DNA of 32,000 nt from Aquabacterium sp. CECT 9606 (GCF_918741295.1 NZ_CAKKNB010000003.1:652668-684667); one strand, 5' to 3'. Positions 9,805 through 32,000 are shown, counted from the first letter of the stretch. The notes: generated by a model from the sequence alone, not told the origin. Translations and numbers: made by a program.

Positions 9805-9814
9805 TACTCACCAT

Positions 9815-11044: not shown

Positions 11045-11053
11045 ATTACCTCC

Positions 11054-11818
11054 TCAAACAATTTTCCGGATCCAGATCGCCTTCGACCCCAAGTAACCAA
11101 TCCATATCCAGAACCACAAATTAAGGATATTTAGAAAGCCTGCAAAAACTGCCGTCAACGGCGTCACCGCCTCACCAAAGGTACGAAGCGTTGACTGCTC
11201 AATGATGCGCACATATTCAGGAATTGCCGTGCGGATGTATTCATAACCAATTAAATCAGCCACAGTGAGCATCGTGCCATGCAGATTCACTGGCACCATG
11301 AAAGGCGCGAGCAAAGCCCAATTGAGTGGATAAATCAGCACACCAAAAGCGAATCCACCAAATAGGCCCGTCCAAAAAAAACTACCCGTCAACAGTAACA
11401 AACAGTCCAGTATCAAGCCTAGCCCTATATAGGTTGAAGGCCAGACAAAATTCATCGGAAAATCCGCGAACAGATGAAAATTGAGGTAGCGACTGATCCA
11501 AGCGGCGAAGGTCAGGCACAAGATAGACAAGGTTCCACCAAGTGGCAGCCGCAGCTTTGCCCAAAATACATAGGAGAAGACACCTGGCAGAACAGTCAGT
11601 GCCAGAGGGGTTACCAGAGGCCACCAACGACGATCACGCCAATCGACCCAATAATCCCAATCACCAACCAGCAAGGCAAAGTGAAAGCTGAAGATACCCG
11701 CAAACAGCAAGACAACCAGCGGGATGACAAACAAATCCACCTGGATATATGCCCGTTTTTGCTCCTCGGGTGAAATCATACCCGATTGGGCCAATACCGT
11801 ATCCGAATCGCTTGTCAT
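11054..11818 (-). CDS. xmoA: Copper membrane monooxygenase subunit A (PmoA/AmoA homologue)
   Basis: 254 aa. GDWDYWVDWRDRRWWPLVTPL, NFVWPS, YPLNWALLAPFMVPVN and IPEYVRIIEQSTLRTFGEAVTP align with the conserved PmoA/AmoA blocks. RBS AAGGAA. Confidence 0.93.
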   Translation of the reverse strand: MTSDSDTVLAQSGMISPEEQKRAYIQVDLFVIPLVVLLFAGIFSFHFALLVGDWDYWVDWRDRRWWPLVTPLALTVLPGVFSYVFWAKLRLPLGGTLSILCLTFAAWISRYLNFHLFADFPMNFVWPSTYIGLGLILDCLLLLTGSFFWTGLFGGFAFGVLIYPLNWALLAPFMVPVNLHGTMLTVADLIGYEYIRTAIPEYVRIIEQSTLRTFGEAVTPLTAVFAGFLNILNLWFWIWIGYLGSKAIWIRKIV

Positions 11819-11985
11819 TTGTTATTTCCTTAAAACACCGAATGCTCATCAGCTGGTGATTTTGGCAGTTTGGAAAAAAACATCCCGAGCACCAGCCAAA
11901 TCATTTTATTTTGTAATGTAAACAGCAAAGCGCTTCACTCGGCTTCAGCACTTGCTCAAAGAAAACTAGTGTGCTCAGCTTGCAG

Positions 11986-12018
11986 AAAACGGCATGCGCA
12001 TCTCGCGCATGCCGTTTT
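11986..12018 (-). terminator. Perfect 14-bp stem-loop 33 nt downstream of the xmoC stop (attenuator, terminator or mRNA-stability hairpin)
   Basis: AAAACGGCATGCGC (11986-11999) pairs with GCGCATGCCGTTTT (12005-12018) around a 5-nt loop. On the transcribed strand the stem ends in UUUU. Confidence 0.5.
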
Positions 12019-12050
12019 TAGGTAGAAAGGCCAGAGCCGTCAAATCACAT

Positions 12051-12821
12051 TCAATTGACTGTTTGCAATTTCTTGGCAGTATCGTCATCGCCATGACCGA
12101 TAACTCTAGTCAACTCGACGATGCGGGTCAACATTTGCACCAGCAAACCTCCAGCCGCGAACGCGGACCACCCAAGCAACACGAATCCCCAGTGGATAGG
12201 CGCCGCGAACAACTCTTCAGCATAAAAAAAAGTGTGCCCCCATTCATTCAATCCGAGATTGGGCATGATCATGATCGGGCCAGCCACCAACAATCCAAAT
12301 GGCAGTGAAATTCGGTTGGCAAACTGCGGCAGTCTTGTGCGCGCATAGATGAAGGCCGAGACGCCAGCGATGATGAACATCGGAATGCCAAAGTAAAATA
12401 GCACTATGTGTGTCGGCGTGAAATCGGTATCGCGCACCGTCACCTGGTGCCAAGCGGCATCAGCTTCCGTGAACACCGAAGCCACGAGGTAAGCGATGAC
12501 AGAGAACAGCAAAATCTGGGCCAGCAGTACAAAATAGCGTCTCAACTCATCCACCGGCTTTAACTGGTCAAGTCGGCGGTCACGCGTCATCAAAAGCCAC
12601 ACACCAATGCTGCACCCCACAAGAGCAAGTACTGGTAGTTGGATATAGAGCAGCCTCATCCAATATTGCTGGAACTCAGGCGAGAAATAGTCTAGCCCGA
12701 CAGTGAATGCAGTTGCATGCTGGTAAATGCGATAACTGCCAAAAACAACAGCAACCACTAAAAGTCCCAAGAAGAATTTAGCCCAAGGGGCCTTCGGTGA
12801 TTTGTAGGCTGATGAATTCAT
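12051..12821 (-). CDS. xmoC: Copper membrane monooxygenase subunit C (PmoC/AmoC homologue)
   Basis: Start chosen at MNSSAYKSPKAPW (ATG 12821) behind AAGGAG, giving 256 aa. VRDTDFTPTHIV and PNLGLNEWGHTFFYAEELFAAPIHWG are the hallmark PmoC/AmoC metal-site blocks. Confidence 0.92.
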   Translation of the reverse strand: MNSSAYKSPKAPWAKFFLGLLVVAVVFGSYRIYQHATAFTVGLDYFSPEFQQYWMRLLYIQLPVLALVGCSIGVWLLMTRDRRLDQLKPVDELRRYFVLLAQILLFSVIAYLVASVFTEADAAWHQVTVRDTDFTPTHIVLFYFGIPMFIIAGVSAFIYARTRLPQFANRISLPFGLLVAGPIMIMPNLGLNEWGHTFFYAEELFAAPIHWGFVLLGWSAFAAGGLLVQMLTRIVELTRVIGHGDDDTAKKLQTVN

Positions 12822-13059
12822 TGCGCAACTCCTTTTGAACGAAAGTGCCCGCCTGCACCAGAGCAAACCATGGCGACAGATGCTTTCGTATGTTGCAGAA
12901 CCCACGTCATCGTTGCTATTAGTAAAATCACTTATGTACTTACCCAGCATTGACGACATCATCGTTACGCCCGAACCTTAAAAGTTACGCGTCACCGCTC
13001 TTTTTTTATTGGGTTCAAATCGTGTATCGCAGATGCATCTATCTTTCATGCTCAACAGC

Positions 13060-16435: not shown

Positions 16436-17878
16436 ATGAAGAACGATATAGCGCCCGAGCAACTGATCAATGTCAACGCCGAACACGCCGAAATCGAACG
16501 TGTGTTCGAACGTCAATTGGCTTCGGCGTTGCGACTGCGCTCTTCCACTGCGCATGATCGCTTGGTCAAGATAGAGCAACTCAAGCGTGCTGTGTTGCGA
16601 CGGCGCGAAGAAATCCAGCACGCTGGCGCGCTGGATTTTGGCAAACCTGCGGCAGAAGTCGATCTGACCGAAATTTTGCCGGTGGTAGCCGAGGCGAATG
16701 ACGCACGCCGCCATCTCCGCAAGTGGATGCGCCCTCACCGGGTATTGCCCACTTTGCTGATGTTTGGCACCAGCAGCCATGTGCGGTATGAGCCCAAGGG
16801 GCGCTGTCTGATCATCTCGCCCTGGAATTATCCAGTCAACCTGACTTTGGGGCCGCTAGTGTCAGCCATCGCGGCGGGCAACACAGCGATCATCAAGCCT
16901 TCGGAAATGACGCCGCACCTCTCCGCAGTGATCGTGGAGATTGTGCGGGAAGTGTTCTCTGAGGATGAGGTCGCCATCTTCGAGGGCGATGCCTCGGTGT
17001 CGCAGGTTCTGCTCGATCTCCCCTTCGACCACATTTTCTTCACCGGTTCTCCAGCGATCGGAAAGGTGGTGATGGCGGCTGCAGCCAGACATCTCACCAG
17101 CGTCACATTGGAACTTGGTGGCAAAAGCCCAACCGTGATCGACGAAACAGCTAACCTTGACGCAGCCGCATCGAACCTGATGTGGTCCAAGTTCGTCAAT
17201 AACGGACAGACCTGCATTGCGCCAGACCACGTGTACGTGCATGACTCGGTGAAAGACAAGTTCGTGCAGAGTTGCAAGAAGGCTCTAGAAAAAGCCTTTG
17301 GCGACGCGACGGGCCCGAACTCGGCCCATCGGGCATGCATCGTCAATCAGCGCCATACCGAGCGCATCGTGCGGTTGCTTGATGACGCCAAGGCGCGTGG
17401 CGCGCGCACCCTTGTTGGTGGTGCCTATAACCTGGCTGAACGCTACATTGCGCCAACCCTGCTAGACAACCTGCCTTCCGACGCTGCGATCATGGAGGAG
17501 GAGATATTCGGGCCAGTACTTCCGATCTTTGGCTATCGCGATCTCGACGCAGTGATCGCCGCCATCAATGCTGGCCCGAAACCATTGGCGCTCTACCTTT
17601 GGAGCCATGACAACGCCAGCATCAACAAGGTGTTGCGCGAAACATCATCCGGTGGCGTGTGCATCAACCACAGCGTCGTGCAGGCCCTGCATGGGCGGCT
17701 ACCTTTCGGCGGGGTCAACAACTCCGGCATTGGCAATTCACACGGCGCGTATGGCTTCAAGGCTTTCAGCCACGAGCGAGCTGTCGTGAGAGCACGGCTG
17801 ATGCTAGCTTCCGTTTTCTATCCACCTTACAGCAAACTGTCACGCAGGTTGATCTCAATGGCGTTTCACATAGTGTAG
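16436..17878 (+). CDS. NAD(P)-dependent aldehyde dehydrogenase, class-3/AlkH-like
   Basis: 480 aa. WNYP, ELGGKSP, NNGQTCIAPD (catalytic Cys), EEIFGPVLP and a hydrophobic C-terminal tail. RBS GGAGA. Confidence 0.92.
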   Translation: MKNDIAPEQLINVNAEHAEIERVFERQLASALRLRSSTAHDRLVKIEQLKRAVLRRREEIQHAGALDFGKPAAEVDLTEILPVVAEANDARRHLRKWMRPHRVLPTLLMFGTSSHVRYEPKGRCLIISPWNYPVNLTLGPLVSAIAAGNTAIIKPSEMTPHLSAVIVEIVREVFSEDEVAIFEGDASVSQVLLDLPFDHIFFTGSPAIGKVVMAAAARHLTSVTLELGGKSPTVIDETANLDAAASNLMWSKFVNNGQTCIAPDHVYVHDSVKDKFVQSCKKALEKAFGDATGPNSAHRACIVNQRHTERIVRLLDDAKARGARTLVGGAYNLAERYIAPTLLDNLPSDAAIMEEEIFGPVLPIFGYRDLDAVIAAINAGPKPLALYLWSHDNASINKVLRETSSGGVCINHSVVQALHGRLPFGGVNNSGIGNSHGAYGFKAFSHERAVVRARLMLASVFYPPYSKLSRRLISMAFHIV

Positions 17879-18007
17879 AGAGCGGCTCAGCTCGCTTGAG
17901 TGGGTAAATTCGTGTCTACGCGAACGCAATAGCGGGGCGCCAAATGCCGGACTTGAAATCAGTACGGAAAGACTCTTTTCACATTCAATTTTTCAGGAGA
18001 AAAATCC

Positions 18008-19645
18008 ATGGAATTTGACTACGTTATCGTAGGGGCCGGTTCGGCTGGTTGCGTGTTAGCAAATCGACTTAGTGCAGACCCCGGTGTGCGGGTCTGCCTG
18101 CTCGAAGCGGGCCCATCAGACAACTCGGCGCTGATTCGCACACCGATGGGCGTTTTGGGACTGCTGACCACGCGCTGGTACAACTGGTACTTTAATACTG
18201 AACCCGATGCGCAACTCAATGGTCGCCGCCTGTACTGGCCGCGCGGCAAGACGCTGGGCGGCAGTAGCTCCATCAACGCAATGGTGTACATGCGCGGTAA
18301 CCCCGCAGACTATGACGCATGGGCTGCACAGGGCAACACGGGCTGGAGTTACCAGGATCTGCTGCCACTGTTCAAGGAGCACGAGAACAATGAGCGCGGC
18401 GGCTCGGCCTTCCACGGCACAGGCGGGCCGCTGAACGTGGCAGAAGTGCGCTCGCGCAACCCGCTGTCTACGATGTTTATTGAAGCCGCTCACCAGTGCG
18501 GGATTCCCAAAAACACCGATTTCAACGGAGCGATTCAAGAAGGCGTGGGTTTTCATCAGGTCACACAGAAGAACGGCGAACGCTGGAGCAGTGCGCGAGC
18601 ATTCCTTCACCCTGTCATGCAACGCCCCAATCTCAAGGTATTCACAGATGCCCGCGCGACACGCCTGCTATTCGATGACAAGTGCATCAAGGGTATTGAG
18701 TACGTACGGGATGGTCGCACCGAACGCCTTGAGATCACGAAGGAAGTGATCCTGTCTGGTGGAGCCATTAACTCGCCACATTTGCTGCTGCTCTCAGGCG
18801 TGGGCCCCGAGGCCGAACTGAGCAAGCACGGTATTCCGCAGGTTCACGAGTTGCCTGGCGTTGGGAAAAATCTGCAGGATCATCTGGACATCACCGTCAT
18901 GATCCGGGATCGCAAAAAGCTCGGTATTGGCGTGGCGCTCTCCTTCCTGCCACGTGCGGTGTCCGGTGTTTGGCAATACCTGCGGCGGCGCGAAGGCCTT
19001 CTAGCCAGCAATGTGGCGGAGGTTGGCGGCTTCGCCAAACTGGCACCAGACTCGACGCTGCCCGAAATCCAGTTCCACTTCCTGCCGACGTATCTACGCA
19101 ACCATGGCCGGGATCTCGCCCCAGGCTACGGGGCCACCCTGCACGTATGTCAACTGCGCCCTAAAAGCCGCGGGTTCATCGGGCTCAAAAGTGCCGACCC
19201 AGTGGCTGACCCACTGATCCAGTCAAACTACCTGACTCACCCTGAAGACTGGAGCGAAATGATCGCTGGGCTCAAGTTAGCCAGGAAGATCTTGGCCGCG
19301 CCCGCATTTCGAGACATCAACGATGGCGAAGTGGCACCCGGGTCCGAAGCACAAAGCGATGAGTCATTACGCGCCTACATTCGCGACAAGGCCGAAACCA
19401 TTTATCACCCAGTTGGCACCTGCAAGATGGGTAACGACGCACTTGCCGTTGTCGATGCGCAACTGCGTGTTCATGGTTTGATCGGTGTTCGCGTTGCGGA
19501 TGCATCGATCATGCCCAGCTTGATTGGAGGCAACACGAACGCGCCGACCATGGTCATCGGCGAGAAGTGCGCTCGGGCGATTCTCTCTTCAGTTTCCGTA
19601 TTAGGCCTCGCGCAGGACCTCAACGCAACTGCACGGGGTATTTAG
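18008..19645 (+). CDS. GMC-family flavoprotein alcohol/choline dehydrogenase (AlkJ-like)
   Basis: 545 aa. FDYVIVGAGSAGCVLANRLS (FAD Rossmann), GGSSSINAMVYMRG, HPVGTCKMG and ADASIMPSLIGGNTNAP. RBS AGGAGA. Confidence 0.92.
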   Translation: MEFDYVIVGAGSAGCVLANRLSADPGVRVCLLEAGPSDNSALIRTPMGVLGLLTTRWYNWYFNTEPDAQLNGRRLYWPRGKTLGGSSSINAMVYMRGNPADYDAWAAQGNTGWSYQDLLPLFKEHENNERGGSAFHGTGGPLNVAEVRSRNPLSTMFIEAAHQCGIPKNTDFNGAIQEGVGFHQVTQKNGERWSSARAFLHPVMQRPNLKVFTDARATRLLFDDKCIKGIEYVRDGRTERLEITKEVILSGGAINSPHLLLLSGVGPEAELSKHGIPQVHELPGVGKNLQDHLDITVMIRDRKKLGIGVALSFLPRAVSGVWQYLRRREGLLASNVAEVGGFAKLAPDSTLPEIQFHFLPTYLRNHGRDLAPGYGATLHVCQLRPKSRGFIGLKSADPVADPLIQSNYLTHPEDWSEMIAGLKLARKILAAPAFRDINDGEVAPGSEAQSDESLRAYIRDKAETIYHPVGTCKMGNDALAVVDAQLRVHGLIGVRVADASIMPSLIGGNTNAPTMVIGEKCARAILSSVSVLGLAQDLNATARGI

Positions 19646-20576: not shown

Positions 20577-21773
20577 GGATGGTCTGAATAACTGGTTTGC
20601 GAAGCACTTGGTGGCGTGATGACATCGGCGAATGCACCGACCGCATCGAGAACGAGCTCAATGGGGCTCCAAAGCGACTTCAAGCGGTGCTCTGGCCCTG
20701 CAAAAGTCACCGCAGCCTAGGTTTTGGGCGCACTCATGCCCCACCAGCCATCAGTTTGCCCCGCACCATCCATAGGTTGCTGAGCATGAACAGGGTCTTG
20801 AGTTGTGCGGTGTTTTTCTCCAGCCCACGGTAGCGAACCTTCACATGGCCGAACTGCTTCTTGATGACCCGAAACGGATGTTCGACCTTGGCGCGGATGC
20901 TCGCCTTGACGCGCTCAATCTTGTCGGTGATGGCTTGCGCCGGGTCATTCAAATCCAGCGCCTTGCGCTTGCCCGGCCGCATGGCCACATGCCAGCTCAC
21001 ATCCCCCTTGGCCTCTGGGCGTTTGTGTGCGCCCTGGTAGCCCGCGTCAGCAAAGGCATCGACTTCTTTGCCGTGCAGCAGCTTGTGCGCCTGGGTCACG
21101 TCATTGACGTTGGCAGCCGTGCCCTCAACGCTGTGCACCAGACCAGAATCGGCATCCACGCCAATGTGCGCCTTCATGCCGAAGTACCACTGGTTGCCCT
21201 TCTTGGTTTGATGCATCTGCGGATCACGCTTGCCTTCGGCATTCTTGGTCGAGCTTGGCGCCGAGATCAACGTGGCGTCCACCGCCGTGCCCGACTTCAG
21301 CAGCAGCCCCTTGTAGGCCAGCAGGTCGTTGACGATGCGCAGCATGTCGGTGGCCAGGTCATGCTTCTCCAGCAAATGCCGAAACCGCAGGATCGTGCTC
21401 TCATCTGGCAAACGATCGAGCACGCCATCGAGCTTGGCAAATTCGCGGTACACCGGCATGTCATGCAGCGCTTCTTCCATCGCCGGATCACTCAGGCCAA
21501 ACCACTGCTGCAGGTAATGAATGCGCAGCATCGTCTCAATGGCAAAAGGTGGGCGGCCGGTCTTGGACTTGGGCCAGTGGGGCTCAACCACGCCGACCAA
21601 CACATCCCACGGCACGACCTTGTTCATCTGTTCCAGGAACTCACGCTTGCGCGTCTTCTTGGTCGACAGGTTCAATCCCAGGCTGACTTGCTTCATGTTC
21701 GTGCGCCACGCATCAACTTGACGAAATCATCATGCAAGACCCGCGCCCTGCGACGGAGTTTTGCAGACCTTCC
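20577..21773 (-). mobile_element. Complete IS5-group insertion sequence (1197 bp)
   Basis: Terminal inverted repeats are GGATGGTCTGAATAACTGG (20577-) and the reverse complement of the right end, GGAAGGTCTGCAAAACTCC (-21773). There is a single transposase ORF, flanking 4-bp TTAG repeats, and the interrupted host ORF is restored exactly. Confidence 0.9.
20734..21696 (-). CDS. IS5-group DDE transposase (InsH-like)
   Basis: 320 aa, collinear with E. coli IS5 InsH as I recall it: TMLRIHYLQQWFGLSD, KRDPQMHQTKKGNQWYFGMKAHIGVD, ADAGYQG, IRAKVEHPFRVIKKQFG, GLEKNTAQL. Confidence 0.93.
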   Translation of the reverse strand: MKQVSLGLNLSTKKTRKREFLEQMNKVVPWDVLVGVVEPHWPKSKTGRPPFAIETMLRIHYLQQWFGLSDPAMEEALHDMPVYREFAKLDGVLDRLPDESTILRFRHLLEKHDLATDMLRIVNDLLAYKGLLLKSGTAVDATLISAPSSTKNAEGKRDPQMHQTKKGNQWYFGMKAHIGVDADSGLVHSVEGTAANVNDVTQAHKLLHGKEVDAFADAGYQGAHKRPEAKGDVSWHVAMRPGKRKALDLNDPAQAITDKIERVKASIRAKVEHPFRVIKKQFGHVKVRYRGLEKNTAQLKTLFMLSNLWMVRGKLMAGGA

Positions 21774-22881: not shown

Positions 22882-23154
22882 TGAGTATTCGGCGCCAACA
22901 ATATGAAATTCGACTTGAAAATGCGATGCGCGCCGGTCTGAATGGTGCTCTACGGAATGACCACCAACAAACTTCAGCCACCACGCAAAAGCGCCCAACT
23001 TCATCGTCAATTCGCCATGGCGTCTGCGAAAGTGCAGCCACGCCCCCCTTGAGCACCGCTGCCCACCCTGGCCATACTGCGATGGCTACCTGTGGACATC
23101 GCGTCCACGAAGCCTTCAATGGAGATTTCGGTCTCCCTGAAGTCCAGCATCGCT

Positions 23155-23177
23155 GGCGTCGCAGTCGTGACCTGCCT
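23155..23177 (+). repeat. Repeat box 1, copy A (GGCGTCGCAGTCGTGACCTGCCT)
   Basis: 22 of 23 nt are identical to 25870-25892. Both copies lie upstream of a + strand ORF start. Confidence 0.8.
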
Positions 23178-23322
23178 TGTAGACGCGGAACTCCGGTTCA
23201 GCCTGGCCATTTCGGTGGCCATGTGTTTTGTTCTGCCCTCGGGCTGAACCTTCTGCTGTCGGCACACCTTGCGGTGTTGCCACCGAGCCGCTTCATCCAT
23301 CAAGACTGAAGCATCCCAAGCT

Positions 23323-23385
23323 GGGGAACCATGTTCCCCACTGGGAAGGTGCGTTCCCCTTCACTTCCAGAAGGAGAACGCCATG
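23323..23385 (+). promoter_or_regulatory. Repeat box 2, copy A: conserved structured leader ending in the RBS/start of a small ORF
   Basis: GGGGAACCATGTTCCCCACTGGGAAGGTGCGTTCCCCTTCACTTCCAGAAGGAGAACGCCATG aligns with 25930-25995. It contains the 7-bp palindrome GGGGAAC-CAT-GTTCCCC. Confidence 0.6.
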
Positions 23386-23559
23386 TTCGCATCTCAAGCG
23401 ACGATGGATGCGCGCGCCATCAGCGTGCTGATGGGAGGCTCCGGGCGTGCCCGCGAGCCTGTGATCCGCCAAGCAGTGCTACCCGCACTGTTGATGCCTC
23501 GACCTCCGATTTTACCACCGGCTGAACGGGCATTTGAGTACATCGCAGCGGCAGCGTGA
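23383..23559 (+). CDS. Small hypothetical protein (58 aa)
   Basis: A strong RBS AAGGAGA lies 6 nt before the ATG. The product MFASQATMDARAISVLMGG... has no recognisable family. Confidence 0.45.
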   Translation: MFASQATMDARAISVLMGGSGRAREPVIRQAVLPALLMPRPPILPPAERAFEYIAAAA

Positions 23560-23664
23560 CCTCCATGGCTCACGCCACCCTGCTGCATCAGCATTTCAAC
23601 CCCTGGGGAGTCCACCATCTTCCCACCGGGACAGGTGTGCCCTCCGTTTTCTGGAGATCACACC

Positions 23665-24192
23665 ATGTCCTATGAGAAATCGCGTGTTCGCCCCAAGCGG
23701 ACCTGCATCGAGATCGAAGAAGCACGCGCCTGGGTTGGCTTTTACCGACGTGTCAGCAGCGACCCCGCTGTTGCCACCGAAGTGATGGCCCAACTTGAGG
23801 CCGTGCCCGAGATGAAGCGCGCCCACCTGGCCCTGTACCTGTGTTGCAAGGAATCCTTGCGCACGCACAAGGCCACGCAAGCTCGCAACAAGCGGATCGG
23901 CCAGTTCGTGCGCTGGCTGGCCCATGGTTTGGTGATCGTGCCTGCGCAAAGCATGCTCAGGGCGCTCCACCAGGGCAGAGAGATGGCTGTCGAATGCCTG
24001 CCCATGATCGACACCAAAGCAGGCAAAGAGCCTGGCGTGCCTCAGGTTCGCCGCCTGAGGCAAGAGGCTGAGTTCGCCCAGGCCCAGGCATCGTTTGATG
24101 CGCAAGCCGGGGCCCCATCCAGCGAGCCCGCATCCACACCCGCTGTGAACAAGGCTTCGCCCCAGCCCAAGGCTGCGCCCACCGCAGCTTGA
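23665..24192 (+). CDS. Hypothetical protein (175 aa) with Ala/Pro/Gln-rich tail
   Basis: Start at MSYEKSRVRPKRT behind GGAGA. The third-position G/C bias favours this strand over the overlapping minus-strand ORF. Confidence 0.6.
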   Translation: MSYEKSRVRPKRTCIEIEEARAWVGFYRRVSSDPAVATEVMAQLEAVPEMKRAHLALYLCCKESLRTHKATQARNKRIGQFVRWLAHGLVIVPAQSMLRALHQGREMAVECLPMIDTKAGKEPGVPQVRRLRQEAEFAQAQASFDAQAGAPSSEPASTPAVNKASPQPKAAPTAA

Positions 24193-24376
24193 GCTTGCAG
24201 CACGTCATGGACTTGCTGTCCTGACGGTGGCTCACCGACACCACCCCTGGTGAGCCCAGATCGTCGAACGCGCATGCCCACCCCAGCGGTGGTGCATGCC
24301 GCGTTCGCCCCCTCCCAACGTCGCCCGCCTCGATTTGCCATTGGCAGATCGGCGCCCCCTTATGAAAGGACTCCCC

Positions 24377-24607
24377 ATGGCCACCGTTGCCGAAACCCTG
24401 CATGCCATTGAGGTGCGTGCCGATCGCGCCATCGTCCAGGAACTGCGCTTGCTGATCAAGGAAGTGCAGGCGCTCCAGCCCTCACTGCTGGGGGACGACC
24501 GCGCGCATGCCCATGCGCTGTTGCTTAAGCTCGATCACCTGCGCCAAAGCCAGGTGGTGGACAGCATCGGCGATCAAGCATTTTTCTTGTTGTCAGCCCA
24601 AGGCTGA
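24377..24607 (+). CDS. Small helical hypothetical protein (76 aa)
   Basis: Start at MATVAETL behind AAGGA. Codon bias is consistent with the neighbouring genes. Confidence 0.5.
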   Translation: MATVAETLHAIEVRADRAIVQELRLLIKEVQALQPSLLGDDRAHAHALLLKLDHLRQSQVVDSIGDQAFFLLSAQG

Positions 24608-24682
24608 TACCCATTCATCACGCCTGCGGGGCCCACGGCCCTGGCGGCGGTGCGTCCCCAGGTTTCCACCGAAGGAACCCTC

Positions 24683-25354
24683 ATGGACAAGGTCACACTC
24701 AACCCTGAGCAAAAGCTCTACGTCATCGCGGCTGAATCAGGCTACAGCTGCTTTGGCTTTGACAACGCCCGCGATCATGCCAACCAGATCGCGCGACAAC
24801 TTGGCAGAAGCGATCTGGCCTTCACGGCAGACGACTACGCCGCGCTGGCGGGCTATCAGAAATACCTGGATGCAACAGCCGAATGGGGATGCTCGCCACT
24901 GAGCCAAGGCACCTACTTTGCGCCCAGGACGGACCCCAAAGCGGCCAAGGTGCTGGAGGCCTATCGCCGAAGTGGCCAGACGATCCGCTTGATATTGGGT
25001 GACCTCACCACAGGCGAATCCTGGCTTGATGAGCACGGTGTGGTCGGCCGCATCGGTCGTTCTGGCGGCTGGCTCAAAGTCCCATTGCTGGTCGAGCCTG
25101 GTGAGTCGGGTGGTGGTGCCATCCTGACCAATTGCATCCTGTGCCTGGTTGACTGGCACACAGGCAAAACACCGTATCGACATCCAGCTTACCGCGAAGC
25201 CAACCTGAGCCTATCGCCCAACGAAGAACACACCCTGCCATGGGCGGTGAAGCGTGGGGATGAGGCCATCGCCTGCTTCAAGGACATCGGCAAGGCTGCG
25301 GCCTACCTGGCCTTCATGCGTGGCGCCACCATCGAGCCGAGCGTCTTTGCCTGA
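24683..25354 (+). CDS. Hypothetical protein (223 aa)
   Basis: Start at MDKVTLNPEQ behind AAGGAA. The composition looks globular and I recognise no motif. Confidence 0.65.
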   Translation: MDKVTLNPEQKLYVIAAESGYSCFGFDNARDHANQIARQLGRSDLAFTADDYAALAGYQKYLDATAEWGCSPLSQGTYFAPRTDPKAAKVLEAYRRSGQTIRLILGDLTTGESWLDEHGVVGRIGRSGGWLKVPLLVEPGESGGGAILTNCILCLVDWHTGKTPYRHPAYREANLSLSPNEEHTLPWAVKRGDEAIACFKDIGKAAAYLAFMRGATIEPSVFA

Positions 25355-25384: not shown

Positions 25385-25600
25385 CTAAGCCGCCTCACGG
25401 CACCGCTGGTACTCGCGGTCAATCAGCCAGTGCAAGAACTGCGTCTCCTTGGAGACGCCCCAGTAATGGGCCTTGCACAGCGCAATGTAGGCCGCCAGGT
25501 CGCTGAGTGATCGAATGCCGACGGGCTCCAGGTCGGTGATCTTCTTGAAGCGTTCGATCTCTCGCCGTGTCAGTCGAATGTGTTGGCCAAAACGAATCAT
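25385..25600 (-). CDS. Small hypothetical protein (71 aa), the only minus-strand gene in the array
   Basis: MIRFGQHIRLTRREIERFKKI... has good third-position G/C bias and is convergent with the 223-aa gene. The RBS is weak. Confidence 0.4.
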   Translation of the reverse strand: MIRFGQHIRLTRREIERFKKITDLEPVGIRSLSDLAAYIALCKAHYWGVSKETQFLHWLIDREYQRCREAA

Positions 25601-25869
25601 GGTCGTGCTCGCTGCATCGATTCAATGAGCACATCTTGTTCAAATCTCCGCCCCTTGTCACTGGTTTTGGCCAGAGATGGATGAAGATTTTTCCATTGCA
25701 AATTCAGTGACAGTCCGTTGTCACAGCACTGTGCCGCACGCAATCCCCCGGGTCGCCGGGCTGTTGGCGGTGGCATCGCCCGGCCAGCGCTTGAACACCC
25801 CGGGCAGGCCGACCACACTGCGCCATGCCTCCCGCATTCCATCGCGGAATGCCCTCCCGACCTTGCGTC

Positions 25870-25892
25870 GGCGTCGCAGTCGTCACCTGCCT
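25870..25892 (+). repeat. Repeat box 1, copy B (GGCGTCGCAGTCGTCACCTGCCT)
   Basis: See 23155-23177. Confidence 0.8.
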
Positions 25893-25929
25893 CATCAACC
25901 GTGCTGGCCTCGCGTCAGCACCTCCTGAG

Positions 25930-25995
25930 CGGGAACCTCCTTCCCCTCGGGGTTGGACGTTCCCGCTTTTCCTTTTTGTGAAGGAGAAATCCGTG
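25930..25995 (+). promoter_or_regulatory. Repeat box 2, copy B: conserved leader ending in the RBS/start of radC
   Basis: CGGGAACCTCCTTCCCCTCGGGGTTGGACGTTCCCGCTTTTCCTTTTTGTGAAGGAGAAATCCGTG aligns with 23323-23385. Confidence 0.6.
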
Positions 25996-26574
25996 AATGT
26001 CACTCATATGTCCAACACCGAACTGGTCAGCGAACTGCTCGCTGCACCTACTCGCCTTGAATCCCCCCATGCGCCCTGTGCCTGCAACCCAGCAGCCGCC
26101 TACCGGGCCGTTGATCAGGATCTGCCCGAACTGGCTCACAAGCTCAGCGTCGCGCGTGAACTGCTGTTGCGCAAGCTGCGCGCCAAGATGCTGGAGGGGC
26201 CCATCATGGCTTCACCCAGTGCCGTTAAAGACTGGTTGTGCCTGTACTGCGCCGGATTGCAGCACGAGGTTTTCCTTGTGATGTACCTGGACTCGCAGCA
26301 GGTCCTGATTGAGGCCGAAGAGCTCTTTCGGGGCACGCTGACCCAGACCTCGGTCTACCCACGCGAAGTGGTCAAAGGCGCGCTGGCACGCAATGCAGCA
26401 GCTGTGCTGTTGGCACACAACCACCCGAGCGGCCAAGTAGACCCCAGCCCGGCAGACGAGCTCTTGACCCAGACTCTGAAATCATCTTTGATGCTGGTTG
26501 ACGTGCGCGTGCTCGACCACTTCATCGTGGGCGGTGACCGGGTCACGTCATTTGCAGAAAGGGGCTTGCTGTGA
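25993..26574 (+). CDS. radC: RadC-like JAB/MPN domain protein
   Basis: Start at GTG 25993 (6 nt after AAGGAG) or ATG 26008. EVFLVMYLDSQ...VYPREVVKGALARNAAAVLLAHNHPSG...PSPADELLT...VRVLDHFIVG contains the JAMM HNHPSG motif. Confidence 0.9.
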   Translation: MNVTHMSNTELVSELLAAPTRLESPHAPCACNPAAAYRAVDQDLPELAHKLSVARELLLRKLRAKMLEGPIMASPSAVKDWLCLYCAGLQHEVFLVMYLDSQQVLIEAEELFRGTLTQTSVYPREVVKGALARNAAAVLLAHNHPSGQVDPSPADELLTQTLKSSLMLVDVRVLDHFIVGGDRVTSFAERGLL

Positions 26575-26634: not shown

Positions 26635-26943
26635 TTGGATAACATCATCGTGACCAGGTTGTTGGAACTGGTCGAGCCTCTGGCCGCCTTGTCGATCTGC
26701 CACCTGACGGCCACCACGCGCCAGAAGCTGGCCAATGACGACCTGTCGGTCAACGTGTACCCGAACGACTATGGTGGTTTCGTCTATGTGGGCTCGCCGC
26801 CCTACACGGTGCCCGCTGAAAGCGACATGGCCATGATCTTCGAATTGGCCAGATTGGCAGGCATCGTCTGGCTCAAGTTCGACAGCGATGCGGCCATCTT
26901 GGAAGGCCTGCCCGTCTTTGACGACCTCGACCAGGGCCATTGA
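26635..26943 (+). CDS. Hypothetical protein (102 aa) immediately after radC
   Basis: TTG start behind AGAGGAG. LSICHLTATTRQKL...YGGFVYVG...IVWLKFDSDAAILEGLPVFD. A good terminator follows. Confidence 0.6.
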   Translation: MDNIIVTRLLELVEPLAALSICHLTATTRQKLANDDLSVNVYPNDYGGFVYVGSPPYTVPAESDMAMIFELARLAGIVWLKFDSDAAILEGLPVFDDLDQGH

Positions 26944-27095: not shown

Positions 27096-27497
27096 ATGAA
27101 AGTACAAATCCCCATGAAGTTGCGAATCAAAGAAATCAAGGCAGACATCGAACTCAAGAACAACGGGATGGAAATTGAAGTCCGCGAAGAAAAGGAAGAC
27201 GGCGCCAGACTGGGTGACATCATCATTGCCCGCGCTGGCATCACCTGGTGCAAGGGCAAGGTCGGCGCGGCCAACGGCATCAAGCTGAGCTGGAAAGAAT
27301 TCATCGCCGCAGTCGAAGCCATCCAGCTGAGCCGCGCGCCAGCCGGCAAGAAGGCCAAGGTCGCCAAGAAGGCACCCGCTGTGAAGAAGGCCGCCAAGCC
27401 AGAAAAGACAGCCGCCAAGCCGCTGGTCTCGGTTGAGCCGGAAGCGACAACCAAAACGCCGAAGCGTCAGGCCAAGGCCAAGCCCAAGGCTGCGTAA
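27096..27497 (+). CDS. Small protein with histone-H1-like Lys/Ala/Pro-rich C-terminal tail (candidate nucleoid-associated protein)
   Basis: 133 aa. The N-terminal ~75 aa look globular (ARAGITWCKGKVGAANGIKLSWKEFIAAVEA). The tail is APAGKKAKVAKKAPAVKKAAKPEKTAAKP...PKRQAKAKPKAA. AAG/GCC codon usage supports the + strand. Confidence 0.65.
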   Translation: MKVQIPMKLRIKEIKADIELKNNGMEIEVREEKEDGARLGDIIIARAGITWCKGKVGAANGIKLSWKEFIAAVEAIQLSRAPAGKKAKVAKKAPAVKKAAKPEKTAAKPLVSVEPEATTKTPKRQAKAKPKAA

Positions 27498-27590: not shown

Positions 27591-30098
27591 CTACGCTGCG
27601 GCCTGTCTCGCAGTGGCACCCTCTGATCTGGCGCCATGCTCAATGATTGAGCCATCAGAGACCATCGCATCCAGATCGATCACCACATCGGCCATGGCGG
27701 TCAACTCCGGGGTCTGCGACACGTAGAACTCGCGCCGGTAGCCACCCAGGCGCAAGACCTCGCGCTTCATGGCCATGAACATCCGCTTGCGCTCAGGATC
27801 GAGCGCGCCATCGGCCTCGTCAGAGAACAAGGTGTCGTAGCACCGGCCCGAATGCTGCGCCAGGTAGAGCGCCACAGCACGGGTCAGGCACTCGTTGACC
27901 CAGACCCGTTCGCCGCCACTCATCAGCCCGACGCTCTTGCTGTCGCCCGACTCGCCGTCATGCACCAGGATGTCGAAGCCTTCGCGCTGCTCTCCCTTGC
28001 CGGTCTCCACCAGTGTGAGGATGGACACCGTGAAGCGCGGGCCGTAGCAGGCCAGCAGCAGGTCATTGGCCAGGCCCGACAAGGCCGGTCCCGCATCATC
28101 AATGGCCAGGGCGATCAGGCCATCGTTGCTCATGCAGCGTGCGAACAGGTTCCAGGCGCCCAGGCTGTCCTCGACGCGGGACATGCGCGCCTCGATTAGC
28201 GCCCGCCGGGCCACCAGTGCTTGGGCCTGCTCCGTCAAGCCGACCAGCGTCTGGGCGTCTCGCTCAGCGACCAGATGGGACTGCTCCGCAGCCGTCACGG
28301 CCAGGCCGGAGCGGGTCAGTATCTGGGCGGCCGCTTCCAACTGAGGCGAGTCAAAGGGCGCGGGCAATGCCGCCAGCACACCATCGAGGCGATTCAGCGC
28401 GTCCCGGAAATGCTGTGCCTGCTGGGCCAACTGTTCGGTGATGTGCTGCCGTCCCGACATAATCTGCTGGCGTTCCGACTGTTCGTCGGCCGTCTCCGAC
28501 CTATGGGTGCCCTCAGGATCTGGTCCGAGGGCCGCCAGTTCCGCTTCAATCGCCAGCAAGGACGAAAGCGCTTGGTCGATCTGAACGGACTTGGCCGCCA
28601 GTATCGCAAACCGAGACGCCCGAGTCCGGGCCGCCGCCACGCGGTGCTCGGCCCAGATCAGGGCCTGCGGTGCCGATGACAACGCATCGCGCTGCTTGCG
28701 GATCGCATCAAGCTCTTGCAGCACGATGGCCTTGTCAGCCGCCAAGCCCGCAATCTGAGCCCTCGCGCTGGGAATCAGCGCCCGGGCTTCCCGGGCATCG
28801 CCCAGCAGTTTGCACTGGCCTTGCAGATCGGTGCCGACGCAAGGCACCTCGCCCACCAGGCCGAAGCGATGGGCCAACTCCTGCGCCCTGAGCACCGCCC
28901 TGCCCGCTTCCTGCTCGATGTTCGCCAGCTTTTGCATCAACAGCCGCTCAGCCCCCTGACAATGGGTCAGTTGCGCCACGCGCTGGCGACAAGCGGCGAT
29001 CCTCGCGTCACGCAAGGCCAGCATCTGCTCGGCCAGTGGCAGACGGACGCCTGCCCGCCGCACGGCATCCCTCACGGCGAGCGTCGCCAGGCAGTCGCGG
29101 CGTGATGCGGCCAGAACGGCACGCCGGTTGCGCTCTTGCGCCAACCGTGTCGTCACGCGTTGGTCAAGCCGATCAAGCCGCTGCACCTCGCCTTGCTCCT
29201 GCGTCTTGAGCGCGTTGATGGTTTGTGTGCCCGTGTCGATCAGGGCCTTGCGCTCGGTCAGCAACTGCGCGCGTCGCGCATCGGTGGACTGGGCCTGGCC
29301 CCGCTCTGCCACCAGGCGGGCGTGGTGAGACCGGTCGGCATCCAGCGCCACCTGTGCCGATTGGCGGTCGGCCAGCGCCTGCCGCACGCGGGCCGAGGCG
29401 CCATGCAAGCGCTGCTGCCCTGCAGCAATGCGTGCTTGCTCGGCGTCCAGCCCGGCCAGTTCCTGCCGGATCACCAGCAGCCCGGCCTTGAGCAGCTTGG
29501 CCGTCTCGCTGGCCTTCTGGCCCAGGGCCCGGATCTCGTCCTGGCCCAGCAGGTCGGACAACAGCGTTTTGATCTCGGCGTTGCGGTAGGTGCTGAGTTG
29601 ACGCTTGCCTTGCGCCGAGAAGACCGAGGTGAAAAAGGTGTCGGCGCTGCCGCAAATGGCTTCAACGCAACGGTCGTAGGTCTCGACCTTGCCGTCGGAC
29701 ACCAGGCCATCATCCAGGCGAACGGGCGACCATCGGCCCGCGTCATCGAGCACATGGAGGTAAGCCTCCGTCTTGCGCCGACCGTTGAGGCGGATCACCA
29801 CCTGGGAGCGATAGCAGCGGCTGCCATGTGCCCAGGTCAGGTGCTTTTCGTTCTCCGGCAGGCAGACATGGTCGTAGTAGGAAAAGCCACCAGGGCCGCC
29901 CAAGGCCGCGCGTGATGGCATCGTGAGGTAGGGATGCATGTTGTCCATCACGGTGGTTTTGCCACGCCCGTTGGCACCCGCGATGGCGATCAGTTCAGCG
30001 TCGTCGGCCAAGCGTTCAAAGTCCAGCGAGAGGACATCCCGCCCGAGGCCATTGCGGATGCCGCGAAAGCCCTTGAGGGTCAGCGATAGTGGTTGCAT
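27591..30098 (-). CDS. SbcC/Rad50-like SMC-type ATPase
   Basis: Start at MQPLSLTLKGFRG (ATG 30098, GGAG upstream), 835 aa. Walker A GANGRGKTT, Q-loop FSAQGK, a long Ala/Gln/Arg coiled coil, signature LMSGGERVW and Walker B LFSDEADGALD. At the exact midpoint sits VPCVGTDLQGQC (Cys codons at 28839-28841 and 28812-28814). Confidence 0.85.
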   Translation of the reverse strand: MQPLSLTLKGFRGIRNGLGRDVLSLDFERLADDAELIAIAGANGRGKTTVMDNMHPYLTMPSRAALGGPGGFSYYDHVCLPENEKHLTWAHGSRCYRSQVVIRLNGRRKTEAYLHVLDDAGRWSPVRLDDGLVSDGKVETYDRCVEAICGSADTFFTSVFSAQGKRQLSTYRNAEIKTLLSDLLGQDEIRALGQKASETAKLLKAGLLVIRQELAGLDAEQARIAAGQQRLHGASARVRQALADRQSAQVALDADRSHHARLVAERGQAQSTDARRAQLLTERKALIDTGTQTINALKTQEQGEVQRLDRLDQRVTTRLAQERNRRAVLAASRRDCLATLAVRDAVRRAGVRLPLAEQMLALRDARIAACRQRVAQLTHCQGAERLLMQKLANIEQEAGRAVLRAQELAHRFGLVGEVPCVGTDLQGQCKLLGDAREARALIPSARAQIAGLAADKAIVLQELDAIRKQRDALSSAPQALIWAEHRVAAARTRASRFAILAAKSVQIDQALSSLLAIEAELAALGPDPEGTHRSETADEQSERQQIMSGRQHITEQLAQQAQHFRDALNRLDGVLAALPAPFDSPQLEAAAQILTRSGLAVTAAEQSHLVAERDAQTLVGLTEQAQALVARRALIEARMSRVEDSLGAWNLFARCMSNDGLIALAIDDAGPALSGLANDLLLACYGPRFTVSILTLVETGKGEQREGFDILVHDGESGDSKSVGLMSGGERVWVNECLTRAVALYLAQHSGRCYDTLFSDEADGALDPERKRMFMAMKREVLRLGGYRREFYVSQTPELTAMADVVIDLDAMVSDGSIIEHGARSEGATARQAAA

Positions 30099-30150
30099 GG
30101 TGATGCTCCAGCGAGAGATTGATACCAGTCTCCGGCACGACCGGGCCCTG

Positions 30151-31431
30151 TCAAGCCAGGACCTCATCGGTCTGTCGAGACAGGTCCTCATCCAGCGGTG
30201 CCGACACCACCGGACAAAGCACCCGGTCGGCAATCTCAACGGGCTGAGCACTGCTCAGGTCGGCCAGACACGCCAACAAGGGCTCGCAATGAGCCTGCGT
30301 CACGTGCGCCCAAGCGGTGACCTTCTGCGCCAGACTGGTCAACTGTGAAATGCCCGCCGCACGCGTTCGCATGACAGGCACGATGCGCCCCTCCAGCTTG
30401 ATGTCCACCGCATCGGCCAGCGCTTGCTGGATGGCCTCGCGGTTGACCCCATGCCGATCCTCGTCCGCCACGGTCCACCGCACCCGCACATGCGCCCCGG
30501 CAATGCTCTGCTCGACGATGGCCTTGCGCAGCGCGTCTAGGTCGGGCTTGCCTTCGAAGAAGATGTCCACCGTTCGGCGAGCAGGCGTTGCATGCAGGGT
30601 GCTGAGTGCCGACGCGGCATCCACCTCCCACAGCAGGAAGCCCTTCTCTCCATCCTCCCCATGGTGGAAGCGACCAATGGAGCCCGCGTAGGCAATGCGC
30701 TGTCGCCCTGCTCGGCTTTCACCATCCCAGACCTGATTCCGATGGATGTGCCCCAACAGGAAGGCCTGGGCCTCTGCGCCGAACAACGCACCCGTCGTGA
30801 ACTCATGATCGAACCCAGCCATTGGCACGCCATGCTCGCTGAGGCAGCCAAACACCGTGCCATGCGACACACCGATGGACGGCACACCCAGCGCCTTGGC
30901 CCTTCGATGGTTGGGCGCCAAGCCTGCGAGCAAGGCCGACAGTTGCTCGCCCACGGCCTCGGCCGCAGCGCAGGCCCCGACCGTGACCGCCACAGCCGCC
31001 TTATTCACCGTGGGAATGCAACTGAACAAGGCCAGCATGCCCTGGGGTAATCCGTCGAACGCCCAACCGCTGGATGCCTGCCACCGGCCCTGCGGCATCA
31101 AGCCGACCTGCCCGATCCGGTCTGCGACATGCACGGGATAGCGGCCACCCAGCAGCTTGAAGATGGATAAGGTGCCGGGCGGCTCATGCGAGAACGTGCC
31201 TTGCAACATCAGCACGGGGCAGTGATCGGCCAGCCGCCGTACCTGCGCGACCAAGCGTTCAGCAGCGGGCGAGTGCAGGTCCAGCGCGTGGTCGGTTGAG
31301 TCGCCCGACAGCACGGCGGCCTGCACGCCCAGTGCGATGGCCTGGTCGATGGCCGCACCGAAGCAGCGGTCGGCCTCGGCCAGGTTCTTGGGTCCGTAGT
31401 GCAGGTCGGAGAAATGGGCGATGCGGATCAT
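30151..31431 (-). CDS. SbcD/Mre11-like calcineurin-fold metallophosphoesterase
   Basis: 426 aa with RBS AGGAGA. Motifs are IAHFSDLHYG (DxH), VLSGDSTDH (GDxxDH), GVSHGTV and LLGHIHRNQ (GHxH). The GNHE motif is replaced by QGTFSHE. ATGA overlap with the upstream gene. Confidence 0.85.
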   Translation of the reverse strand: MIRIAHFSDLHYGPKNLAEADRCFGAAIDQAIALGVQAAVLSGDSTDHALDLHSPAAERLVAQVRRLADHCPVLMLQGTFSHEPPGTLSIFKLLGGRYPVHVADRIGQVGLMPQGRWQASSGWAFDGLPQGMLALFSCIPTVNKAAVAVTVGACAAAEAVGEQLSALLAGLAPNHRRAKALGVPSIGVSHGTVFGCLSEHGVPMAGFDHEFTTGALFGAEAQAFLLGHIHRNQVWDGESRAGRQRIAYAGSIGRFHHGEDGEKGFLLWEVDAASALSTLHATPARRTVDIFFEGKPDLDALRKAIVEQSIAGAHVRVRWTVADEDRHGVNREAIQQALADAVDIKLEGRIVPVMRTRAAGISQLTSLAQKVTAWAHVTQAHCEPLLACLADLSSAQPVEIADRVLCPVVSAPLDEDLSRQTDEVLA

Positions 31432-32000
31432 GGCCGTTCTCCTGCTCGGGTCAGGTGCAGTTCGCTCTCGATCTTGTCGAGGTAGCCCTGCGGGTCATTG
31501 CAGTAACGCTCCAGTTCATCCCATGCCCGGCGTCGGCCATGGGGGTTGATCTTCCAGCCCAGGCCCCAGCGTTGATCGGCGTATGCCAGGTACTGGTCGG
31601 GCGCGATCTCATAGTCCTGCGCCCTGGCCAGCAACTTGTCCAGGTTGGGCTCGCCCTCCTTCATGCGCACTTCAACCGGCGCCACCTGCGTGGCAGGTTG
31701 ATCCGGGCCGCTGCCCGCATCCAGGCTCGCGCGGGGCAAACCTTCCAGCACCTGACTGGCCAGTTGGGCATGAACGATGGTGGTGTCCTCGTCCTCCCTG
31801 TCACGCAGGAGCGCGGTCACATCGACCGGGGCTTCCAGTTCGATGATCCACTGGGAGACGCGGGTCGGCTGGCCGTTTTCGTCGATGTGCGCCACGTCCA
31901 TCAAGCGTTTGGTCAAGTAGAACGGCGTGCGCTCTCGGTCCAGGAAGCCGGAGATGCGGCCACCTCGCAAAAAGCCGATGGTTTCGAACCGCTGGATCGC
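31428..32000 (-). CDS. Unknown protein, first visible gene of the SbcCD-like operon (partial, open at right edge)
   Basis: The reading frame is open from the window edge (...AIQRFETIGFLRGGRISGFLDRERTPFYLTK...) to TGA at 31428. It has an acidic, Pro-rich linker and the C-terminal YADQRWGLGWKINPHGRRRAWDELERY. I recognise no family. Confidence 0.6.
   Translation of the reverse strand, partial: AIQRFETIGFLRGGRISGFLDRERTPFYLTKRLMDVAHIDENGQPTRVSQWIIELEAPVDVTALLRDREDEDTTIVHAQLASQVLEGLPRASLDAGSGPDQPATQVAPVEVRMKEGEPNLDKLLARAQDYEIAPDQYLAYADQRWGLGWKINPHGRRRAWDELERYCNDPQGYLDKIESELHLTRAGERP

Follow-up and report, generated by a model that had tools for sequence, protein, structure and literature searches.

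Why should a mobile element bring its own DNA-end-processing complex when at least one host of such elements, C. metallidurans CH34, which harbours plasmid pMOL28, has canonical chromosomal sbcCD (PMC2864759)? This question is raised by three adjacent genes in a stretch of 32,000 nucleotides from Aquabacterium sp. CECT 9606 (GCF_918741295.1, NZ_CAKKNB010000003.1:652668-684667), which is called the window in the following. The three minus-strand open reading frames (ORFs) between positions 27591 and 32000 encode a Gp3-like protein of Pfam family PF18897, a nuclease of the Mre11/SbcD type and an ABC ATPase resembling Rad50/SbcC. Few DNA-repair machines have been studied as thoroughly as Mre11-Rad50/SbcCD, among whose hallmarks the CxxC zinc hook is counted. 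From this canonical machine the locus departs in three respects, an invariant PC-x8-C loop, an altered motif III in the nuclease and the constant PF18897 companion. Within the conjugative islands and megaplasmids of Betaproteobacteria the locus is read here as part of the backbone, with DNA-end processing and recombination repair as its task, an interpretation which is held tentatively, at a little less than an even chance.

The Gp3-like gene (31428..32000, minus strand) is open at the window edge and is represented by its C-terminal 190 amino acids. Its TGA stop codon shares bases with the ATG of the nuclease gene (30151..31431, minus strand, 426 amino acids) in an ATGA stop/start overlap at 31428..31431 (minus strand, context ggccATGAtcc), and a GGAG is found 8 nucleotides 5' of the nuclease ATG. 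The overlap, in the form of ATGA or GTGA, is kept in 62 of 70 related loci. The nuclease gene stops at 30153-30151, and after a spacer of 52 nucleotides the ATPase gene (27591..30098, minus strand, 835 amino acids) begins with the ATG at 30098-30096. An ORF of 886 amino acids with a GTG start was considered for the ATPase and rejected as an over-extension, as the homologues all begin at MQPLSL, which corresponds to the ATG at 30098. The coordinates of the three ORFs, the overlap and the gap had been given in an earlier note made from the sequence alone, as had the motifs of nuclease and ATPase quoted below, and all of them were recovered where they had been placed.

Library hidden Markov models (HMMs) recognise the nuclease weakly, with an E value of 0.038 for TIGR00619 sbcd, 1.3e-4 for an SbcD-like PHROG and a match to Pfam Metallophos below the cut-off. 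Its assignment comes from a structure-model search and from invariant motifs. An AlphaFold2 model based on a 25-sequence alignment was of moderate confidence (pLDDT 62.7, pTM 0.65), and a Foldseek search of this model against the PDB returned Mre11/SbcD proteins for all of the top 40 matches, with about 340-460 aligned columns and with Mre11:Rad50 of T. maritima (3tho_B, 8.4e-9) and E. coli SbcCD (6s6v_B, 1.2e-8) as the best ones. The alignment covers essentially the whole length of the protein including the capping domain and the C-terminal helices, and the protein as modelled has a calcineurin-like phosphoesterase fold with an Mre11-type capping domain. Phosphoesterase motifs I (DxH, here DLH at residue 9), II (GDxxD/H, here GDSTDH at 43), IV (H, here SHG at 189) and V (GHxH, here GHIH at 227) are canonical. 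In alignments of 10 and 25 sequences, including one plasmid homologue with 51% identity, residues D9, H11, D44, D47, H48, H82, E83, H190, H228 and H230 proved to be invariant. Invariant in the family is also motif III, QGTFSHE at residue 77, which reads G-T-FS-H-E instead of GNH[DE]. When the family was aligned by hhalign to gp75 of the Leptospira phage LE1, G-T-FS-H-E was paired with G-N-H-D, so that the histidine is retained and the metal-binding asparagine is replaced by threonine with an insertion of two residues. These results place the nuclease with Mre11/SbcD, its motif III being non-canonical. It is also the most conserved gene of the region.

The bipartite ABC head of the ATPase is complete, comprising Walker A (GANGRGKTT, residues 41-49), Q-loop (FSAQGK, 160-165), signature (MSGGE, 726-730) and Walker B/D-loop (DEADGALD, 760-767), all invariant in the family alignment. 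A profile built from 18 ATPases gave ten matches in the PDB, Rad50 ATPases only (best 5f3w_B, 3.3e-6), and the protein matched the SbcC-like PHROG_77 with 2.5e-20; Pfam AAA_23 and SbcC_Walker_B remained below their cut-offs. These profile comparisons support a Rad50/SbcC-like ATPase, and the family assignments which the earlier note had made for both proteins are supported. Judged by composition only, residues from about 185 to 650 probably make up a long central helical region rich in A, L, E, Q, R and K and poor in proline and glycine, with a break at 412-433.

In this proline- and glycine-rich break, between two stretches rich in Ala, Leu, Glu, Gln and Arg, lies the apex motif PCVGTDLQGQC (28812..28844, minus strand), a C-x8-C at residues 419-429 and hence at the midpoint of the protein (417.5), in the place of the Rad50 hook. 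Measured against the canonical hook, which is CxxC (PMC6969161), the family does not qualify and has an equally conserved two-cysteine loop instead. VPC-x8-C-xLL was invariant in 58 of 58 ATPases from chromosomal islands and plasmids, at an overall identity of only 37-47% for the plasmid proteins. A HMMER scan of 1.84 billion representatives of clusters at 50% identity yielded 970 representatives with E<=1e-30, and nearly all of those listed had 800-835 amino acids and aligned end to end. The apex was then surveyed in the 135 full-length representatives among 150 listed, whose identity to the query was 33-52% in most cases. [VILMA]PC-x8-C-x-LL was present at the midpoint in 124 and a form with x9 in another 8, giving 132 of 135, and the remaining three carry near variants. 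The C-x8-C apex pointed out in the earlier note is therefore a property of the whole family. By analogy with the zinc hook, two PC-x8-C loops could supply the four ligands for a metal ion. Two related loci (L025, at about 11.4-16.5 kb, and L029) have two full-length ATPase paralogues in tandem downstream of one nuclease gene, both with an intact apex motif, which may represent the junction of two elements or a duplication.

The earlier note had recognised no relative of the first gene, and in this point it has to be corrected. The 190-residue fragment contained in the window has by itself no Pfam match. It is, however, 75% identical to the C-terminal 190 amino acids of a 431-amino-acid gene at the related locus L003 (6332-7627), and this full-length orthologue matches PF18897 with an E value of 2.6e-30, as does an orthologue from plasmid pBMC401 with 1.6e-37 (106.2 and 129.7 bits at a gathering cut-off of 23.6). 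By sequence, the first gene of the window is the 3' end of a PF18897 Gp3-like gene of about 430 codons. Full-length orthologues consist of a conserved N-terminal domain, an acidic and variable linker and a helical C-terminal domain of about 70 amino acids, which is modelled at pLDDT 96-98, and the fragment in the window comprises the end of the first, the linker and the C-terminal domain. In the full-length alignment four cysteines of the N-terminal domain are invariant (C162, C196, C201 and C209 in L003 numbering). Searched against PDB sequences, the family profile gave no match.

PF18897 is named Gp3-like, "Recombination directionality factor-like", in Pfam, as the family of the recombination directionality factor (RDF) gp3 of phage phiC31, and one source labels a homologue as recombination directionality factor. 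Taken literally, these names would make the Gp3-like protein the RDF of a large serine integrase of the element, with an incidental position next to nuclease and ATPase. This is considered very improbable, because the stop/start overlap with the nuclease is conserved, because the Gp3-like gene immediately precedes that of the nuclease in each of the 68 loci whose sequence extends far enough, and because the protein is about 190 amino acids longer than phiC31 gp3 (about 430 versus 244), with an added linker and C-terminal helical domain. The recombinase-like genes noticed in the conserved flanks are of the tyrosine type only and no serine integrase was noticed near the module, a systematic scan for serine recombinases not having been made. 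Moreover, the RDFs of large serine integrases have been argued to be scavenged phage proteins with the RDF activity of the gp3 type as a moonlighting function, and the RDF of TG1, which is of gp3 type, is predicted to be a zinc-bearing OB-fold protein binding single-stranded DNA (ssDNA) like T4 gp32 (PMC11795197). What the family has in common with phiC31 gp3 and TG1 gp25 is the PF18897 match and, by eye, a cysteine cluster followed by a strand-helix segment F-x-[FL]-x-T-x-S-[WF]. In phiC31, gp3 belongs to the early block of replication genes and is the second gene after that of an exonuclease. A specific kinship of the nuclease with Bxb1 gp47, an RDF of another type which is an Mre11-like phosphoesterase, was also considered and rejected (hhalign E 0.18), so that only at the superfamily level could the operon be said to unite two RDF families.

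Scanning one genome per species, a relative of the nuclease was found to be encoded in 360 species genomes. The 80 best loci are almost entirely from Burkholderiales and Rhodocyclales, such as Aquabacterium, Dechloromonas, Rhodoferax, Acidovorax and Thauera. By tblastn the nuclease was detected on 73 megaplasmids, all from Burkholderiales and 42 of them typed conjugative, including the model plasmids pMOL28 (typed MOBH) and pHG1 as well as pBMC401. Together with the 970 ATPase clusters these numbers define a large family. Its members are annotated in databases as "DNA repair exonuclease", "metallophosphatase", "DNA repair protein", "AAA family ATPase" or "hypothetical", and no literature description of the module, its apex, the Gp3-like partner or the hotspot dealt with below was found. 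In addition to the constant adjacency of the Gp3-like gene, the ATPase gene is found at most 10 kb downstream of the nuclease gene in 42 of 45 loci. The joint conservation of the three genes across loci puts the locus far beyond chance, and this genetic linkage is what suggests a partnership of nuclease and ATPase.

Loci of the type of integrative and conjugative elements (ICEs) have a GHKL-type ATPase, an AcaB-like protein (weak match), AlpA, a tyrosine-recombinase-like protein and DUF1173 upstream, and DUF5983, RadC/JAB and a series of conserved unknowns downstream. In the window this downstream block is represented by DUF5983 (26635-26943, plus strand), RadC/JAB (25825-26574, plus strand, Pfam RadC E 1.4e-40) and four conserved ORFs without family match whose order is kept in relatives (25385-25600 on the minus strand; 24650-25354, 24296-24607 and 23635-24192 on the plus strand). 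The backbone genes between 23635 and 27497 occur in identical order downstream of the ATPase gene in 17-37 related loci, varying by gene. On plasmids the block adjoins genes of the PRTRC system, DUF932, an antirestriction protein, an N6 methylase and a PAPS-reductase-family gene. Islands of this type that bear PRTRC genes have been described as a class of ICEs, that of the phn island, whose mobilisation system is SXT-like (PMC3318190). The identity of the three proteins to the window copies correlates with that of RadC, DUF5983 and other backbone genes (Spearman mostly 0.5-0.8), which is the pattern expected of core genes and not of cargo. At the locus itself the window is mosaic when compared with L003, identity amounting to 90-98% for the ATPase and the genes downstream but to 80% for the nuclease and 75% for the Gp3-like gene. 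A location on mobile DNA outside the housekeeping sbcCD context, as it had been proposed in the earlier note, is borne out by this syntenic backbone of ICEs and megaplasmids. Plasmid versions of the locus have in addition a conserved gene of 171-218 amino acids which overlaps the ATPase start and is absent from the window; the copies of pMOL28 (L086, 17598-18113) and pBMC401 (L001, 8233-8889) are 35% identical to each other. On pBMC401 a DUF7696 gene is located upstream of the Gp3-like gene and a PAPS-reductase-family gene downstream, neither of which occurs in the window.

The trio had been described as one operon in the earlier note. While the coupling of Gp3-like gene and nuclease gene stands, a single operon does not, as the ATPase gene is preceded by a conserved promoter-like element of its own. 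In the window this element (30127..30154, minus strand) consists of TTGACA at 30154-30149, which encloses the nuclease stop codon, a spacer of 16 nucleotides and GAGACT at 30132-30127, and is followed by a GGAG at 30109-30106 before the ATPase gene. Both in loci with cargo and in loci without it, TTGNNN-N16-GA[GA]ACT was found 27-34 nucleotides before the ATPase ATG, altogether in 58 of the 73 loci of ICE type, a count which is not to be read as a probability since the loci are related. The spacer within the element always has 16 nucleotides, and 0.135 occurrences are expected from shuffled sequences. A simple sigma-70 scan did not call the element because its second hexamer is weak. TTGACA-N16-GAGACT looks like a dedicated promoter of the ATPase gene, and such a promoter would explain why the pair of nuclease and ATPase genes tolerates splitting. 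Of 76 loci, 46 resemble the window in having the two genes side by side and 30 have them 0.4-8.8 kb apart, and three further loci have an insert of more than 10 kb or have lost the ATPase. The counterpart of this cargo slot in the window is the empty 52-nucleotide spacer (30099-30150). Among the loci with cargo in the slot (including L011, L017, L018, L019, L026, L051, L072, L075 and L078) the inserted defence genes comprise Gabija (GajA 4.5e-278, GajB 1.3e-241), AbiEi/AbiEii, AbiH with an HNH protein, lone HNH nucleases and GmrSD, and further cargo consists of an antiporter, a P-type ATPase, trehalose genes and a sigma factor. This slot is a hotspot for cargo and defence genes that had not been described before. 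An extra gene in the slot of L003 and L004 was considered as a lost fourth subunit, but is unrelated to the middle gene of the plasmid versions and was classified as cargo.

With defence genes gathering in its middle, the trio could be taken for an immune or competition system itself, an element-borne SMC-like nuclease which, like Wadjet or Lamassu, would sense and destroy the DNA of invading phages or of rival plasmids; its effector would be of the Mre11 type, and the Gp3-like protein would serve as sensor or adaptor. The architecture, an ABC/SMC-like ATPase with a probable long coiled coil combined with a nuclease on mobile DNA, is indeed shared with Wadjet (JetABCD) and Lamassu (LmuABC), TIR and AAA_15/21 genes occur at neighbouring loci, and conjugation reportedly meets a barrier in host SbcCD (bioRxiv 10.64898/2026.07.06.735840). 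The three proteins of the window were compared with the systems of PADLOC-DB v2, including Wadjet, Lamassu, Gabija, PARIS, Septu and MADS. Here the ATPase gave weak matches to defence ATPases (mad3 1.4e-9; PtuA, AriA/AriAB and PbeC 1e-3 to 0.03; LmuB 0.064; JetC none), which reflect generic ABC-head similarity. Nuclease and Gp3-like fragment matched no PADLOC model and no system was matched, in line with the remark of the earlier note that no named defence system has this composition; in Pfam, NCBIfam and PADLOC taken together the three proteins of the window gave sub-threshold or generic matches only. In contrast to Wadjet and Lamassu, which have Toprim, Cap4 and similar effectors, the module has an Mre11-type nuclease and no kleisin- or KITE-like partners, and its position in the backbone is fixed. 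The trio diverges together with the backbone whereas the neighbouring cargo is patchy, the defence genes sit beside the trio and are not part of it, and the same slot houses the antiporter, the P-type ATPase and the trehalose genes. Conserved core genes commonly border cargo hotspots without being defence genes, as is the case for the hotspots of SXT-type elements. For these reasons an immune function of the trio appears rather unlikely.

Phages were searched as another possible source of the module. Neither the nuclease nor the Gp3-like protein had a match by tblastn in 50,697 phage records, and a close origin from phage replication modules is therefore rejected. For the ATPase, a fairly close relative was found only in the temperate Leptospira phage LE1, some 176 other phage matches being weak and located in Staphylococcus phages. 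In LE1 the metallophosphoesterase gp75 and the SMC-family ATPase gp74 lie in the operon that adjoins the gene of the CI repressor, and genes for ParB, a helicase and a methylase follow. The hhalign alignment of gp75 with the nuclease family extends over 347 columns (probability 95.6%, E 1.2e-8), gp75 having kept the canonical GNHD, and gp74 is 32% identical to the ATPase over the C-terminal head (E 7e-30) with VPC-x13-C-LLL at the midpoint. Apart from this distant pair, the phage searches did not show the conservation within phage replication modules which the earlier note had named as an argument against its own proposal. The presence of a related pair in a temperate phage operon beside CI also speaks against the immunity explanation. 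LE1 gp76, encoded upstream of gp75, was inspected as a counterpart of the Gp3-like protein and found not to be Gp3-like.

The neighbourhood of the trio, with genes typical of establishment such as those for antirestriction protein, N6 methylase, DUF932, RadC/JAB and PRTRC, would also suit an establishment or anti-defence function, by which the trio would act early in the recipient, processing the incoming strand or repairing breaks made by restriction or CRISPR systems. Relaxase-blocked ends would be removed, hairpins cut and host barriers countered in this way. SbcCD-type enzymes such as E. coli SbcCD do cleave hairpins and protein-blocked ends. On the other hand the origin of transfer and the leading region were not located on these elements, and a survey of leading regions contains no such proteins (PMC11541004). 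The proposal overlaps with end processing and recombination repair, differing from it mainly in timing and target, and is judged on balance unlikely.

End processing and recombination repair as a backbone function is preferred since backbone status, three-way linkage, establishment-type neighbour genes and local mosaicism all fit it. Over defence it is favoured by the fixed trio in the backbone, by the co-divergence with the latter and by a partner family predicted to bind ssDNA; the distant LE1 pair with a similar apex beside the CI repressor and the failure of nuclease and Gp3-like protein to match PADLOC models are counted in its favour as well. Of the two functions which the earlier note had offered, this one is retained, while a role in defence or plasmid exclusion has no support from HMMs and rests on architecture and neighbouring cargo. 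A sequence of events can be proposed. Nuclease and ATPase would form a complex of the Mre11-Rad50/SbcCD type, in which a nuclease dimer is joined to two ATPase heads on long coiled coils, and the link between these coiled coils would be made at the apex, where two PC-x8-C loops would contribute four cysteines that presumably surround a metal ion. The substrates would lie in the element's own DNA, whose ends, hairpins or protein-blocked ends the complex would recognise and cut. The ssDNA so produced would be bound by the Gp3-like protein, whose gene is translationally coupled to that of the nuclease, or else this protein would bring the complex to it; either would involve its Cys4 domain, with the C-terminal helical domain behind the acidic linker acting as adaptor. 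The likely benefit would be that the element is repaired and can recombine while it is transferred, established or replicated, and mosaic elements would arise as a by-product.

Several points weigh against this interpretation. With the asparagine of motif III missing, nuclease activity is not guaranteed. The binding of ssDNA by PF18897 is a structure-based prediction for a distant member, and the comparison of the Gp3-like family with phiC31 gp3 was non-significant (hhalign E 0.3; hmmsearch without match). The model of the Gp3-like protein is poor outside the C-terminal domain, due to a shallow alignment with N-terminally truncated homologues, and fold searches with this model gave no match. 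A canonical single-stranded-DNA-binding protein is encoded elsewhere on such elements (pMOL28), a backbone position is also compatible with a role in defence or competition, and the slot between nuclease and ATPase genes gathers defence genes.

Among known systems the closest resemblance is to SbcCD of E. coli and to the Mre11-Rad50 of Thermotoga and archaea, with which the module shares the nuclease fold with motifs I, II, IV and V, the adjacent gene pair, the bipartite ABC head, a probable long central helical region and a cysteine pair at the midpoint. The similarity is marginal, however (E 0.038 for the TIGR00619 sbcd model, about 1e-6 for Rad50 profiles). The module differs from these machines in the lack of the motif III asparagine, in PC-x8-C rather than CxxC at the apex, in an obligatory third gene and a location in the backbone of mobile elements, in the promoter-like element of the ATPase gene and in the frequent splitting of the gene pair by cargo. 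Its ATPase has 835 amino acids versus 1048 in E. coli SbcC. Phages also have SbcCD-like pairs (PHROG 77/100), the former of these families being the one matched by the module ATPase. By analogy, phage T4 with gp46/gp47 and gp32 offers a Rad50/Mre11 pair of a mobile element beside a zinc-containing ssDNA-binding protein, and the proposed mechanism would follow a similar logic. The partner in the module is a PF18897 protein and not gp32, and its equivalence to gp32 would derive from a structure prediction published for a remote member of the family. In SXT/R391 ICEs and IncA/C plasmids ssb-bet-exo forms a backbone recombination module next to cargo hotspots and promotes the formation of mosaic elements. 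The parallel to the present module is one of function only, both being found on MOBH-type conjugative elements; the proteins are of lambda Red type there and of Mre11/Rad50 type here, are unrelated, and no homology is expected.

A bolder proposal would be that the locus encodes a new SMC-like nuclease machine of mobile elements, an Mre11-Rad50 complex with a variant hook which is loaded or licensed by the Gp3-like protein. Though decidedly unlikely, it would have two consequences. The machine would reveal the ancestral "day job" from which RDFs of the phiC31 type were scavenged, and it might be an element-borne system of immunity or exclusion, sited at a hotspot of defence genes and perhaps servicing it. 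Irrespective of this proposal the family raises the questions of whether another apex can replace the zinc hook and of what the primary function of gp3-type RDF proteins is, and the locus marks a cargo and defence hotspot which can now be mined.

As to the surroundings, the GC content of the window climbs from 0.47-0.58 to 0.60-0.67 across 23-32 kb. Searches of the window for tRNAs and Rfam elements found none, and megablast against plasmids gave one short match. The backbone conserved in relatives ends near 23000-23600, and the element may be truncated on that side, as the antirestriction, methylase and PRTRC genes expected beyond this point are absent. Convergent with the ATPase gene lies an ORF of 133 amino acids (27096-27497, plus strand), rich in Lys and Ala, whose C-terminal tail is Lys/Ala/Pro-rich and resembles histone H1. 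Outside the window it occurs, at 94-95% identity, in the closest relatives L003-L005 only and is absent from the wider family. In two of these relatives a VgrG of the type VI secretion system, a PLD-type effector and a Tli4-like immunity gene are found a few genes upstream of the Gp3-like gene (L003 1-4964, L004 1-3866), and a TIR_2 protein and an AAA_15/AAA_21 pair follow further downstream of RadC. On the other side of the window, an insertion sequence with a DDE_Tnp_1/DUF772 transposase (20734-21696, minus strand) separates the element-like block from metabolic genes. These include a minus-strand operon of a copper membrane monooxygenase with AmoC/PmoC (12051-12962), AMO/PmoA (11054-11818) and Monooxygenase_B (9815-11044); two ORFs that match no family and a gene fusing CopD to cytochrome c (6835-8808) come next. 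An aldehyde dehydrogenase and a GMC oxidoreductase are encoded close to this cluster (window 6835-12962 on the minus strand, 16436-19645 on the plus strand), and the GC content of the monooxygenase region, 0.47-0.52, is below that of its surroundings. The cluster may encode a hydrocarbon or ammonia monooxygenase in a Burkholderiales-like genome.

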